IMG/VR virus record: IMGVR_UViG_3300020045_011333
Coordinates: 1-64,000 of that record
Origin: a virus
Direction: 5' to 3' (one strand)
Length of the DNA: 64,000 nt
The notes under the pieces are model-generated. The model did not search any database. It saw only the letters and a program-made list of their open reading frames with translations, and was not told the DNA's origin. The stretch's first letter is position 1. The number at the start of each line of letters is the position of its first letter. Below are positions 132 through 50,900 of this stretch, one piece after another. The translations under genes and the position numbers were made by a program.

Positions 132-356
132 CCGATGGTAGCTCAGTTGGTAGAGCACTGGATGCCCTGATTGTACGAAGAAAGGACTGATCCTCTTAGT
201 ATTCTGCATTGAACTTGAGATGATTTTAGATGGAAAGGAATAAAGTAGTGAGTGTAGCTAGCGAACCAAATATTCCGAGTAAGATTAAAAATGATTCGAT
301 AGGGATGAAGGGAGAAGCAACAGGTGTCGGGGGTTCGAACCCTTCCCATCGGACCA
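132..356 (+). ncRNA. tRNA-like RNA with the anticodon arm replaced by a ~166-nt domain
   Basis: Acceptor CCGATGG(132-138)/CCATCGG(346-352)+A+CCA; D-arm GCTC-AGTTGGTA-GAGC; variable loop GTGTC; T-arm GGGGG-TTCGAAC-CCTTC. Positions 158-323 occupy the anticodon arm position. Confidence 0.8.
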
Positions 357-20178: not shown

Positions 20179-20473
20179 GAACCCTTGGCGAAATTGGTAA
20201 ACGCGAGAGACTTATAGAAAAATTGAGTGCACGAAATGAAAGTTTTGATGTAGAACTGCTCAAATTCGGTGAAGGCTTTAACCTGCTAATACCGAGCCAA
20301 GCTTAGGGCAAAAGTTCTTTGAAGGTGTAGAGACTAGACGGGCAGGACCTAAAGCTTTAAGCAAAGGTCAAGGTATAGTCCAGACCACAAAACGTTAAAT
20401 CGGTGGCTAAAGCTATAGTGGTACGAAAATCTCTTTCTTCGGATTGTCGGTTCGATTCCGACAGGGTTCACCA
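20179..20473 (+). tRNA. trnL: tRNA-Leu(UAA) interrupted by a group I intron
   Basis: Acceptor GAACCCT/AGGGTTC+A+CCA; joining exons gives anticodon arm AGAGA-CTTAAAA-TCTCT; long variable arm; T-loop TTCGATT. Confidence 0.92.
20214..20425 (+). mobile_element. group I intron (212 nt, no ORF) in the tRNA-Leu anticodon
   Basis: Inserted after the U of UAA and ends in G; core elements CTCAAATTCGGTGAA, AATACCGAGCCAA, GTAGAGACTAGACGG, GGTATAGTCCA resemble cyanobacterial/plastid trnL introns. Confidence 0.9.
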
Positions 20474-23942: not shown

Positions 23943-24025
23943 GGCGCTGTAACCGTTCTTCTCTTCTAAAGAAGTAGACGTAATTGGAGTTGAAAATGCG
24001 GGTTCGATCCCTGCCAGCGTCTCCA
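23943..24025 (+). tRNA. non-canonical D-armless tRNA-like RNA with UCU (Arg) anticodon loop
   Basis: Acceptor GGCGCTG/CAGCGTC+T+CCA; only 8 nt before CTTCT-CTTCTAA-AGAAG; 23-nt variable region; T-arm GCGGG-TTCGATC-CCTGC. Confidence 0.7.
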
Positions 24026-43970: not shown

Positions 43971-44663
43971 AGTTCATGATTCGTTCCAATAAAAATGATA
44001 AAAGAGTGAATATTTAAGTATATTCACTCTTTTCTTTATGGAAAAATATGATATAGTATCAGTGTAAATTAGTTTTTTGTAAAGGAGTATGTATCATGTA
44101 TGAAATTGTAGATAAGGATAATGTAGTATATTCAGTTAATAGTTACTACACCGCAGAGATAGTTAGAGATAGCCTTGTTATGGTAGGTCGCGGACCAGTC
44201 AAGATCATAAAAGTAGGTGATAACTCTCACTGCAACAGAGAAAATTCAAAGTCGTTCTTCCTAGAAGAGAAGCTTAATTGTTGAAATAGTAGACCGGGGA
44301 CCCATTAAAAATTTAAGTGACGCCGGGAGGCTCCACAAAAAATTTAACAAGGGCCTAGTTCCACCACAACTTTTTCACGATTCCAAATTCAGCTTTTAAC
44401 AGGAGAAAAATGATGATGAGGTACAATAAATATGTGGCTACTGCTTTTGTAACTAATCGTGTTGTTACGGCAGAGCCTTCCAGACAATTGGTAAATGCCG
44501 CTGTAAGCATGTTCAAGGATTATCCCCACATAGAGCATTGCTACGTCAGACGATGCCTTGTGGACCAAACCGGAGGCATTCTAAGCGACCCCCATTTCAA
44601 AGCATTGACCATACCAAAGAAATCAGTGCTTGACAAAATGAAAAGAGCATGATATAAGCTTTT

Positions 44664-45025
44664 CATTGATTGAGACGTAGCTCATGCCCCTGTTTGACAC
44701 AGCGACGGCATGAGCCACTGTTCGCGGTGATAGAGGTTCACGGACCGGAAGCTGATGAGGTCAACAGTCAGCATCATTCTAAGGGCATGTGGCTGGAACT
44801 TTCGTTTAAATTGGTACTCTGGCATACGGGTTCGAGTCCCGTTAGAGCAATTCAAAGGTTGTTAACCTTTGTAAGCAAGCCTTGTTGTAGCTGTGTCAGA
44901 GTTTAAATTACTAGATCAGTGATATTAGTTGTGTTTCATTTCCTTTTCACGACAAGTTATCACTGTTAAAAAAGTGCGCCACGTCTCTCAGTCCCTAGGC
45001 TGATTGAGGCAGGCGCACTTTTTTT
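44664..45025 (+). ncRNA. candidate ~360-nt structured ncRNA with an internal tRNA T-arm
   Basis: Own promoter TTGACA(44630)-N17-TATAAG; GCTCATGCC/GGCATGAGC; ACGGG-TTCGAGT-CCCGT; 5'/3' pairing GATTGAGACGT/ACGTCTCTCAGTC; 13-bp terminator stem. Confidence 0.7.
44968..45025 (+). terminator. intrinsic terminator
   Basis: AAAAAAGTGCGCC/GGCGCACTTTTTT stem with T-tract. Confidence 0.8.
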
Positions 45026-45178
45026 GTTTTTATCTTGAGTTTGCAATTTTTTTATCACGGGAGTCCATTTTTTATTTATCTTCAGAGTCCATTTTTTCTG
45101 GCACGTTGGCGCGAAAATTCTGGAATTTTATTTTAAATTAATTTTAAAAATTTTTCAAAAAATTTCTGGTGAGCGCTG

Positions 45179-45241
45179 GAACAAACCGTGAACATTAGTC
45201 ATGAGAACAAACCGTGAACGACTTTTGTTCCTGATTCGTTC
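45179..45241. promoter_or_regulatory. three alphaproteobacterial-type LexA (SOS) boxes
   Basis: GAAC-AAACCGT-GAAC at 45179 and 45205; GTTC-CTGATTC-GTTC at 45227. Confidence 0.7.
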
Positions 45242-45322
45242 CGTTTTAAAAATAAGGCAGGTTCGCCGTTCCCATTCTCGGCCCCGACCTTCGGTCTTTT
45301 GCGGCGTCTTTGAATTGTCCTT

Positions 45323-45351: not shown

Positions 45352-46484
45352 CTGGAAAAATAATTTATTTTTATAAAAATTTAGGTTGACTCCGTTTCAT
45401 GACGTTATATATTGAGGATAACGAAAACGCAACGGAGTTAAACCAAATGACTTTCAATTCTTCTATCAAAGAAGCTAAGGAACGCGGCGAATTAAGCCTT
45501 GCCCGTCGCATGGACGCTGAACGTCGAATCGCAAGCGCCATAGTTCGCCACGCGCTCAAAAACAACATGCAAGTTAGTATCAATGATGGCGAGGAATGGA
45601 CAGTTAAAAAGTCTGGAAATTATCGCGAAATTATGTCCGCATTGTATTCCACGGATGAGGATGTTATTCGTTTGAATAACGCAACGGATGGTTTTCCGCT
45701 GGGCAAATTCTTTCTGGTCTATGGTAATGACGGTTATGATGTAGTTTCCGACTATACCGTGACAGAAACAACGGATCATATTTGGGAAACTGTTATTAAG
45801 CCTCTTTCTGATTTGATCGAAATGGGTAAATAATTTAAAAAATGGGTATTGACTAAATCCCCATTTCTTTTATGTTACTGGTAACGAAACGCAAACAAAA
45901 GGTTTTGCATCATGACTGTCACGCTAGAAAAATCCTATCGCCGCTCGGTTAACGTCCTGCGGCCTAACAAGGCCCGTATGGCCGCGATTCATGCCGAATA
46001 TAGCCTTATCCATAGCGAGGCTGTTTTCACTGCTAATGCGATGCTATCGCTTGGCAATAAGACCGCAAGAGAACTGTATGAAGCGGCTTGCGCCATTCGA
46101 TCCGATAATGAAACGGAACTGGCAGAAGTGATTCGCGTTGTACTAATGGGATTGGCTCGAAAGGAAGATTATAAGAATAATAAAAATAAGTCTTGACTTA
46201 ATCATTAAAATGTAAGAAAACAGGACTGCAAACAACAAATTGGAGCTTTAAAAATGACAATGCTAGTTACTGGTTACAAGAGCAAGAAAGACCTTAAGGC
46301 TGCAATCGGCAAGCCGCTCAAGTATCGTGAAACGTCTATGTTTGGCGCGGAATACAAGCCTAATGGCAAGCTAACCGTCGCTCATCGCCCGCATATGACT
46401 CCAATTGGAGGACGGGAATTTTTCGCTCAAGTGACAATGGTTAACGGATTGATTGCAAAGGTGGAATAAAATTATTAAATAATT

Positions 46485-47929: not shown

Positions 47930-50900
47930 TTGACTTAGATTACTAAAAGATTTAAGTTTGATCTATCGAAACAAAGGAATAGAAAAATGGAAAAGCCTAA
48001 CCGTCTTTATAAAACAACTATTGTAATTTGGACTGATTTTCCTACCTCTTCTATAGGAATAGAAGACTTAGCAAGAGAAACACAAGTAGGTGATGCTTTT
48101 TGTGAATCAAGTGAGTGTGTAGAGATTTCAAATAAAAAGTATTTTCCTGAAACTGCATTTTTTGGGGATGAATAAGTTTTTAAATTTCACCTACTGTTAT
48201 AGTAGGTGATTTTTAAATTCTTACAACGGAGTCAATCAAATGCCTGCTAAAATCACATTCAATAAAGCAACTGTTAAAGGCCCTAAGCCTGCAACTGGTT
48301 ATGTCGCGCTCTTGCCAGTTGGTGACAAGACTGTTAAATTTGTGTTGCAGGATGATGCATTTGAAACGCCTTGTTTGACGCATTATGCTAGTGGGATCAT
48401 TACTATCCATAGCAATACCGTTGCGGCTCGAAAGCTTGCTAAATATGTCGCAAACCCTTATTCAACGCCTATGACTGATAGGCAGATTTGTGCCGAGATT
48501 TTGAACGAAATTGTTAATCAGCACGGCGCGGAAAAGATACTGGCAAAATTCGACGCTGCTAAGATAATTAACACTTGACTTTGTGAGTCATTGGATTAAA
48601 TTAATAGCAATTGAAACAAAAAGGAACTGAGAAAATGGAAAAGATGGAATTTTCTGAAGCGCTTGCAATCGTTCTAAATCTTGCGCAAGGCGCGGCTATG
48701 GATGAGAATGAAGCCGAAATTGACGAAATGCAAGACGAATATGTGCGACAACAAAACGCCTTGGATTCTGTTTATGCCTTTCTTTATCTTAAGAAAGATT
48801 AAAATAACTCTTTACATGGCCTAACATGTAAGATAATGTTAGGCCATAGAAACAAACGCTTTAAGGAGCAAAACTAATGACACTTTCCACCAATGCTGCT
48901 AAAAACAAAGATTTGCGGAACGTTGGTTCTGAAATGCAACATAGACACTTCGCCACGGTCGCAGGCATTATTAGGAACCTTAATGGTTCCATGTCTAAGG
49001 AGGATGTTAAGCTAGTCGCAGAACATTTCTCCGCTGATTTGAAGAACACTAACGCAAAGTTTGATAAGAAAAGGTTTCTTGCGGCTTGCGGTTTTTAAAT
49101 CTTTACACAATGGAGTCTTAGTGATAAGACTCTATTAGTAAATTTTTAATGCTTTAAGGAGTTTAAGCAATGCAACTTTTAAGAGTAGTACACAAAGACT
49201 CTAGACCAATGCTATATTATATAGACGGTAAAAGAGTCGATAAGGATCGTTGGCATTTGGCATGGCAGTTTGCAAAATCCCGTGATTCTATGACAACTAA
49301 AGATAAAAATGGCAAGTTTTATCATTATACAAGCGTCCGTTAATCCTTTGTCAATCTTTACCTGCTATCCTCTTTATATCAGATAAACAATCAACTGAGG
49401 ATAACAGGACATGACGACGAAAATCAATCTTAAGACTGTAAAGCCCCTCACAACTGTTAACGACTTCGCAACTGGCATGCAATTTATTATTCTTTTCATG
49501 TCGATCGCTCTTGCCAGTCTAGCCGGTTTGGTTTATAGATATGACGCTATCTGCAACTCATTAGGGATTTAGAATAATGGCAATCTACATTCAACGAAAA
49601 GATAATCGTTATCTGGAAACGGTTGACGAATTCGAAACTCGTAAAGAGGCATTGACTAATCTAAAGGAATATCGCCTAAGCGATAATTCAGGGAATTATT
49701 ATTTGTCTAGCAGGGCTTGCCGCGATTGGAATAAGAAATAAAATAATTAATTGACAATAGGGCTGCAAGGCCCTATTTTCTTTTTAACGCCTGCCGTGGG
49801 AACGGCAGGCCTGCCTGTTATTTATTTCAGAACAAAACATAAACATAATATTTTAAAAATTCTGGTTGACATATGTTTTGCAGGTCATTAGATTACAGAT
49901 ATCGAAACAAAGGAATCAAGCTAATGGCAAACCGTTATGATGTAGAATACACAGATACATTTGGAGGCGAGGCGAATTATTCGTGGATTAATCGCAAAGT
50001 TGTAACCATGCCTGAATTGACACATTATGGATATGATGGCGGAACCAATTATTCCAAGGCTAATAAAGTATTTGAACGCGAACTAATGAAACGTGCTAAG
50101 GCTTCTATGGGTTTGACTAATGTTTCTGGAAAAACTTACTGGCATGGCGATATGTGCGAATTCCGCCCCTATGGTTCTGCAACTATTATGTTTATCACAT
50201 ATAAGGATGAATAATATGTTTCCGGTTCAAAATCACACTCGCCTTATACAAGGTGACAAACGATTTGACGATCTTGTCAGACTGGCAACTCATAAGGCAA
50301 ATAAATTCCTTACCTGCAATCCGACAAGGCGAGCGTCAACCTTTATCATGCTGCAATGGTGCGGCAATGAATACAGAGCAAAAGCTAAATTTCGTTCTAA
50401 TCAAGGCACGAGTCACATTGCAACCGCTTTTGAAAGTGAATTGAAATAATTTTATAAATCCTGTTGACATAGGTCAAATAATTTTTTATGTTTGATCTAT
50501 CGAAACGGAGAACTGAGACAATGAATATGACTCAAGAAAGCATTGAATATCGTAAAGCTTTCACTATGAAAGTAGAATCTGCTAAAACAACTGCAACAAA
50601 ATATAATGGTATGTCTTATAAGGCCATGGAAAATTTGATTGACGAAATAAAAGCTGACTATAAAGCGGGCAAGATAACTATTCAAGATTTAAATAATTGT
50701 CATGTATTTACAATGACAACTTATTATAAAAGTGCTGGCGATTGGCGAAAATTGCTTTGATAAGATTTAAGTTAATAGCCGCTTTGACACGGCTATATTC
50801 TTAAACTTATGATAAAAGGAACTGAGCAAATGAAAATCCTTAAAGACACCTATGCTGTGTTTTGGACTCGTAAAGGCTGGAAACAAGCTTTCCATGCCGA

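Follow-up and report, generated by a model that had tools for sequence, protein, structure and literature searches.

Introduction

A minihelix of acceptor stem and T-arm is the least that RNase P and the CCA-adding enzyme need as a substrate, and TruB and TrmA act on T-loops. The minihelix device cuts a functional RNA from a longer transcript in the case of mascRNA in MALAT1 and MEN-beta, of the C4 RNA of phages P1 and P7, and of the CI RNA of phage P4. Phage T4 produces two stable RNAs, C and D (species 1 and 2), which derive from its tRNA cluster, are matured by tRNA-processing enzymes and have no known function, and GOLLD and ROOL are large phage-associated ncRNAs found near tRNAs. To our knowledge, phage-encoded RNAs that imitate parts of tRNAs are few, and they have lately become relevant to defence and counter-defence around tRNA cleavage. 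In bacteria and phages, the Y-RNA-like RNAs YrlA (RF02553) are non-coding and mimic the T-arm/D-loop region of tRNA (PMC4201824).

Here we analysed a candidate ncRNA of an uncultivated phage (IMG/VR). The window, i.e., the whole stretch of 64,000 nucleotides under study, is the first part of a 184,940-bp record with a 121-bp terminal repeat and a GC content of 36.5%. The original prediction proposed a stand-alone early RNA with an embedded tRNA-like module and switchable ends. We report that the phage has a second, paralogous copy of the module, which, as judged by sequence, ties the ncRNA to unusual tRNA-like genes; this paralogy, together with a series of negative tests, is what is new in the present analysis.

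Results

The phage and its tRNA genes

With large siphoviruses of Alphaproteobacteria and Microcystis, the phage shares at most 39% identity in its large terminase, and a search for close relatives through the terminase returned none. Of the 15 ordinary tRNA genes of the phage, 14 are clustered at 68-75 kb. A further locus, at window 23943-24022, matches the tRNA model with only 33.3 bits and is not called by ARAGORN; its D-arm is almost absent and 20 nt are inserted before the T-arm. Searches of the 185-kb genome for a CCA-adding enzyme, RtcB or a Ro (TROVE) protein found none of them. A short tyrosine-recombinase domain, which may be that of a Xer-like resolvase, is encoded at genome 137927-138448 (193-aa open frame, 77.9 bits; L066) in a phage that otherwise looks lytic.

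A promoter-to-terminator unit without a credible gene

The ncRNA unit lies 23 kb from the tRNA cluster, among small plus-strand genes that each have their own sigma-70-like promoter. The unit is intergenic, as the 80-aa ORF upstream stops within the promoter: its stop codon falls on the TG of the extended -10, just 5' of the hexamer. The features read or predicted in it are collected in Table 1.

Table 1. Features of the ncRNA unit, in window coordinates
Feature	Position	Strand	Description
Sigma-70-type promoter	44630-44658	+	-35 TTGACA (44630-35), 17-nt spacer, extended -10 TG-a-TATAAG (44650-58; TG 44650-51, TATAAG 44653-58); read from sequence
GC-rich 5' domain	44665-44804	+	predicted hairpins: GCTCATGCC/GGCATGAGC (44680-44715); UUCG-loop hairpin (44717-44730)
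Degenerate cloverleaf, poor 'tRNA-Leu(taa)'	44774-44851	+	called by ARAGORN -ps80 only
tRNA-like module	44805-44852	+	D-loop-like AAUUGGUA (44809-16); acceptor-like 5' strand UACUCUG (44815-21); T-arm (44826-42); 3' strand UAGAGCA (44843-49)
8-bp hairpin CAAAGGUU-GUU-AACCUUUG	44853-44871	+	predicted
UGUCAGAGU	44894-44902	+	might pair at long range with ACUCUGGCA (44812-20), with the T-arm hairpin inside
AT-rich long hairpin CAGUGAUA...UAUCACUG	44917-44965	+	fold z = -4.1 for 44910-44968
Intrinsic terminator	44968-45025	+	long interrupted hairpin (44968-45024), GC core GTGCGCC/GGCGCAC, seven T (45019-25), -32.3 kcal/mol

The promoter is near-consensus and has the layout of the promoters of the neighbouring cassettes, i.e., a -10 hexamer, 6 nt and then A-T-(T/C)-G-A: ATTGA stands six bases after the ncRNA -10, identical in spacing and nearly identical in start to the ATCGAAAC of these cassettes. 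Transcription is predicted to start near A44665. Between window positions 45849 and 55719, seven promoters of small early-type genes have ATCGAAAC exactly 6 nt past the -10 hexamer, and three further promoters have variants of it, AACGAAAA at 45386, AACGAAAC at 45849 and ATTGAAAC at 48575, the last one 7 nt past the -10. ATTGATT at that offset is found at the ncRNA promoter and at a promoter at genome 67786; a 'stable-RNA promoter' argument built on this shared string was dropped, because the 67786 promoter drives a small protein gene and not the tRNA cluster. The promoter geometry fits early transcription by the host polymerase, and it is this fit that suggests the timing.

As the original prediction had it, a dedicated promoter and a terminator are found with no credible gene between them. 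The RNA is thus flanked by the signals of an independent transcription unit, and the locus looks like a real stand-alone non-coding cassette of ~360 nt with its own promoter and terminator, for which we infer a function.

An A-run precedes the terminator hairpin on its 5' side, which makes the terminator potentially bidirectional. A promoter-like site on the minus strand (45158-45130, TTGAAA-17-TAAAAT) might yield an antisense RNA of ~150 nt (window 44968-45160), and given the A-run, leftward transcripts from this site could also stop at the terminator. Further downstream, a separate promoter at 45386 serves the gene at 45.4 kb; it follows a regulatory spacer of 360 nt that also occurs in relatives lacking the ncRNA: relatives of this gene keep the 45.1-45.4 kb spacer with its GAAC/GTTC boxes and have other genes in the place of the ncRNA. 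These boxes are repeated at window 45179-45275, and contigs of distant relatives (L045:3040-3240; L047:2950-3020) contain about 53 nt of this region (45223-45275) several times over, in both orientations and with 76-93% identity. This 53-nt stretch is a mobile or shared regulatory element.

Composition and predicted folding

The GC content of the 5' domain is ~51-53%, compared to the genome mean of 36.5%, which places it in the top 0.5-1% of 150-nt windows (52.7% and the top 0.5% for the 5' half of the RNA); it resembles that of the tRNA cluster, a level that some coding windows also reach. Fold stability was expressed as a z-score and compared with a genome background (mean -0.41, sd 1.29) established from the first 30.5 kb. 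The whole ncRNA scored -4.7 with the terminator and -2.7 without it, and the 5' domain alone -1.7, within the ordinary range of the background. The structure drawn for the 5' domain is therefore a prediction that the fold score does not support. Locally, two segments stand out: the surroundings of the T-arm (44805-44905, z = -3.4) and the AT-rich hairpin (z = -4.1). The proposed six or more helices are predictions, and the score of the whole RNA owes much to its terminator. Likewise, the repeats first noted in the sequence are all in place, with GGCAT at 44707, 44784 and 44821, CATGCCC at 44683 and GGGCATG at 44783, but we attach little meaning to the threefold GGCAT because by our estimate about five such triple 5-mers are expected in 360 nt by chance.

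The tRNA-like module

The T-arm of the module, ACGGG-UUCGAGU-CCCGU, has a perfect 5-bp stem and a 7-nt loop that fits UUCRANY. It adjoins directly an acceptor-like stem, UACUCUG/UAGAGCA, with five Watson-Crick pairs, one G-U and one A-C, followed by A44850 at the discriminator position and by no CCA. The module therefore has the parts of a tRNA-like minihelix, a T-arm stacked on an acceptor-like stem, which agrees with its description as a mimic of these two elements lacking CCA. In the surrounding degenerate cloverleaf, the D-arm and the anticodon stem are barely paired and the variable region is 9 nt long. Two alternative folds are predicted for the module, one with the local acceptor-like stem (44815-21/44843-49) and the other with a 9-bp helix between 44812-20 and 44894-902.

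We then compared the locus with known RNA families. Rfam searches, at the gathering threshold over the window and at E ≤ 10 over 44400-45250, gave chance-level matches only, and no family reaches E = 1 in the ncRNA stretch. The tRNA model (RF00005) has no match at E ≤ 10 in 44400-45250, where ARAGORN with default settings calls no tRNA either. Neither ARAGORN -m nor Rfam detects a tmRNA (RF00023 and permuted forms); the stretch has G at position 70 and lacks both CCA and a tag-like frame. No YrlA or Y-RNA-like match was obtained in the stretch, and no TROVE domain in the 185-kb genome. The group I intron model (RF00028) does not match the ncRNA stretch, a negative that is meaningful because the same search detects a group I intron in tRNA-Leu(UAA). 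This tRNA gene (window 20179-20473) bears a 212-nt intron at the classical U|AA site, scored by Rfam Intron_gpI at 41.7 bits (E = 7e-9; gathering score 50). Among tRNA-like families, the mascRNA-menRNA model (RF01684) aligns best, over 44815-44849, with 15.6 bits and E = 4, far from its gathering score of 42.5. These results indicate that the stretch is not a tRNA, a tmRNA, a Y-RNA-like RNA or a group I intron; they uphold the view that hallmarks of tmRNA, RNase P RNA and Y RNA are lacking, and the Rfam and covariance searches that had been suggested as a check assign the RNA to no known family.

A second copy of the module at 184 kb

The whole genome was scanned for T-arm-like hairpins outside the annotated tRNAs, which returned the ncRNA module and a cluster at the far end of the record. 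There, a 50-nt paralogue of the module (genome 184250-184299) lies directly 3' of the CCA of an insert-bearing tRNA-like gene (184003-184248, hereafter gene B). The local alignment of the two copies scores 40, compared to 24 ± 3 in shuffles, and is the sole significant match to the ncRNA in the genome. A covariance model, R1, scores 60 bits at the module and 51 bits at the paralogue and finds nothing else in 185 kb, ordinary tRNAs included.

Both copies have TTTAAATTG-N-TACTC, a T-arm with an identical TTCGAGT loop and AGAG immediately after the T-stem. The loop UUCGAGU is found in the ncRNA, in its paralogue and in the adjacent gene B, and in none of the 15 ordinary tRNAs. The T-stems, ACGGG/CCCGT and TAAGG/CCTTG, differ by two doubly changed pairs and one pair that has become U-G, with two pairs unchanged, and the CUC/GAG stack is retained in both. 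Across the stems, 91.7% of the cells are paired, compared to at most 67% when the partners are slid; this comparison covers three sequences only (the two copies and one look-alike, described below), with double changes at three pairs, and the pair-count shuffle control (147/500) is not significant. The acceptor-like stem of the paralogue is only 3 bp long, with no acceptor strand, and a perfect 9-bp helix, CTACTCACA/TGTGAGTAG (184259-184306), encloses its T-arm hairpin. The ncRNA can form an analogous helix, the 9-bp alternative mentioned above.

Gene B (L053:204-449) is itself a paralogue of a tRNA-like gene at window 132-356 (gene A), the alignment scoring 123 versus 25 in shuffles. Both genes have 7-bp acceptor stems, D-arms, T-arms and an encoded CCA, with sigma-70 promoters ahead, and in both the anticodon loop is interrupted by an insert of ~150-165 nt for which no group I model gives a match. 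ARAGORN reads gene A as a tRNA-Gly(gcc) with a 152-nt insert, and gene B has an extra hairpin inserted in the D-loop. Both inserts contain GGATTCGA(C/T)AGGGAT, which resembles the motif of the tmRNA 5' tRNA-like domain; the partial alignment to the Rfam tmRNA model scores 9.2 bits (E = 0.39). The 5' 140 nt of the ncRNA are not significantly colinear with gene A or gene B (z = 0.1 and 2.1); over a short length, its 5' part resembles the 5' end of gene A.

Searches for relatives in other genomes

No match was obtained by blastn against 50,697 phage records. The ncRNA is also absent, by blastn and nhmmer, from 43 viral loci and 8 metagenome or run-assembly loci (JGI, ENA, Logan) reached via the downstream gene, and five whole related phage records contain neither a homologue nor an R1 match. 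The 21-nt string of T-arm and acceptor strand occurs in no viral contig searched and in no GTDB genome (185,579 species), and the same holds for the module pattern. A pattern derived from the genes at 132 and 184 kb gave one match in viral contigs, inside a coding region, and was discarded as chance. The ORFs beside the two loci, the 80-aa ORF upstream of the ncRNA and a 161-aa ORF next to the sister copy, have zero relatives in our searches, which marks the phage as isolated.

In metagenomes, the module pattern gave one look-alike, on the bacterial contig SDBS01000196.1 (L065), where the three conserved strings are present. We give it little weight because its T-stem is broken and because the contig is bacterial, with the look-alike beside rpmA. 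The non-coding stretch of ~370 nt to which it belongs (L065:10020-10400, minus strand) has a fold z of -5.85 and no Rfam or tRNA match; a 26-bp helix closes a ~190-nt domain there, preceded by the look-alike.

Discussion

The best reading of these data, to which we give an even chance, is that the locus encodes an ncRNA of tRNA origin that stands alone and, through its minihelix, recruits tRNA-processing enzymes of the host. The host polymerase would read the non-coding unit into an RNA of ~360 nt, the core of which would be a tRNA-derived minihelix, a T-arm on an acceptor-like stem with the D-loop-like AAUUGGUA ahead of it. This minihelix would serve as a handle for host tRNA enzymes: RNase P might cut 5' of U44815, and 3' nucleases and T-loop modifiers might also act on it. 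Such cuts would leave three pieces: ~150 nt of GC-rich RNA from the 5' part, the ~36-nt minihelix itself, and ~175 nt of 3' RNA ending in the terminator. Alternatively, the minihelix may titrate host tRNA enzymes. We favour a role in processing or recruitment because minihelices are minimal substrates of these enzymes and because MALAT1/mascRNA, C4 and CI RNA use the same device, and the most economical reading is that the T-arm with its acceptor-like stem is the conserved, selected part of the RNA. Transcription, early timing, processing and any target of the ncRNA are what we infer from sequence. Several observations count against the recruitment reading: the A-C mismatch and the missing CCA of the acceptor-like stem, the ordinary fold stability of the 5' domain outside the terminator, and a whole-RNA homologue found in no collection searched. 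The phage also lacks a CCA-adding enzyme, RtcB and Ro, so that its gene content indicates no pathway.

The chief rival, which we consider rather improbable though it is the most serious, is that the locus is evolutionary debris: a duplicate, either of the 184-kb locus or of a tRNA gene, that is decaying between a promoter and a terminator, whether transcribed or not, and has no function of its own. Detectable kinship is limited to the 48-nt module, with the 5' part at chance level against genes A and B; the surrounding cloverleaf is degenerate, and nothing is conserved elsewhere in the collections searched. The flanking ORFs have no relatives, which suggests a region that turns over fast. Three observations speak against debris: the T-stem is perfectly paired, through compensatory changes, with three pairs that differ from the paralogue; the promoter, near-consensus, and the terminator, very strong, are both kept intact around 360 nt in a genome dense with genes; and the GC content greatly exceeds that of the genome. 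As only two copies can be compared, these points make decay less probable.

We regard as unlikely a broader proposal, in which the phage evolved its own family of tRNA-elbow or minihelix RNAs, made early as decoys that would capture, redirect or saturate host enzymes or defence nucleases recognising the T-loop and acceptor. To this family would belong the ncRNA, its sister module in the 184-kb region, both tRNA-like genes with inserts and perhaps also the tRNA that lacks a D-arm. If true, this would be a strategy based on tRNA shape and not on the anticodon.

Less probable still is that the stretch forms the structured 3' UTR of the operon of small genes that precedes it, or an attenuator that governs read-through into the genes at 45.4 kb by competition between its 5' end and the terminator. 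A consensus scan shows no plus-strand terminator from 43.5 kb to 45027, a scan that also missed the terminator at 44968-45025, and GAGACGT at the 5' end complements ACGTCTC of the terminator's left arm. The original prediction likewise had the two ends of the RNA compete for CTCAGTC. The motifs are where this proposal placed them (GATTGAGAC at 44668, GATTGAGGC at 45002, CTCAGTC at 44987), and the pairing of the 5' end with the terminator, at -18.4 kcal/mol, is stronger than the -11.6 ± 2.7 of shuffles. However, the terminator pairs more strongly still, up to -23.2 kcal/mol, with at least ten further windows of the RNA body, which fall into two stretches (44682-86 and 44768-72), and forcing the alternative pairing costs ~16 kcal/mol. 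Because of these stronger competitors and this cost, we see no evidence for a switch, and that part of the prediction is given up. A UTR or an attenuator is further disfavoured by the promoter of the unit itself and by that of the downstream gene, which stands behind a spacer shared with relatives lacking the ncRNA.

It is very unlikely that the module is an aberrant but functional adaptor, like a tRNA or tmRNA, trimmed from the transcript and provided with CCA by the host. Its T-arm, its discriminator A and a UUUAAAU loop with U33- and A37-like positions would suit such a role, and the phage has other odd tRNAs (D-armless at 23943; insert-bearing at 132 and 184003). Against this, the models for tRNA and tmRNA do not match, there is hardly any pairing in the D-arm and the anticodon stem, the variable region is 9 nt long, neither a G3-U70 pair nor a tag frame is present, and the T-arm with its acceptor strand is found in no GTDB genome.

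We consider it highly improbable that the stretch encodes a small protein. Open frames do exist, namely a 78-aa frame with a TTG start, a 36-aa ATG frame at 44755 and a 57-aa frame on the minus strand, but they have no Shine-Dalgarno sequence at a usable distance and are rich in Arg, Ser, Cys and His, as chance frames are. The 78-aa frame, the translation of which would have contradicted a non-coding RNA, has no ribosome-binding site and 0 matches among 1.84e9 representative proteins. Finally, a reading as an attP-type site, with the 3' half of a tRNA gene copied from the host to serve integration, is just as improbable and was rejected: the module does run from an anticodon-loop-like stretch to the acceptor 3' strand, the part carried by tRNA-integrating phages, and the phage has a tyrosine recombinase, but this enzyme is encoded 93 kb away, neither the 21-nt string nor the module pattern occurs in the genomes of 185,579 species, and the paralogue is missing the acceptor strand.

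A unit that runs from promoter to terminator around a bare minihelix, is duplicated within one genome and stays paired through compensatory changes would offer a compact test of how phages use host tRNA enzymes, be it for RNA processing or as targets of decoys; its present value is limited, as the ncRNA is known from one uncultivated genome.

Comparison with known systems

Several described RNAs resemble the ncRNA in part. Genes A and B of the same phage have in common with it the UUCGAGU or UUCGA style of T-loop and sigma-70 promoters, whereas the ncRNA has no full 7-bp acceptor stem, no D-arm and no CCA. Compared with YrlA, the ncRNA is about three times longer, does not match the YrlA model, has no Ro-binding stem and comes from a phage with no TROVE/Ro gene. 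The T4 RNAs C and D lie inside a tRNA operon, whereas the ncRNA stands alone, far from the tRNA cluster. With GOLLD, ROOL and tmRNA it has in common that it is a large structured candidate RNA in a tRNA-rich phage, but it shows no Rfam match to them at E ≤ 10 and no tmRNA by ARAGORN. The C4 family has no match in the ncRNA, which lacks CCA and for which no antisense target was identified. The closest likeness to mascRNA, C4 and CI RNA is in the arrangement: as in these, an acceptor-plus-T-arm minihelix sits inside a longer non-coding transcript and could direct cleavage by RNase P, and the weak cmscan alignment of mascRNA falls exactly on the acceptor-like stem and T-arm. The ncRNA belongs to no described family and has an unusual layout; it is a tRNA-like phage ncRNA, and as such of a known kind.
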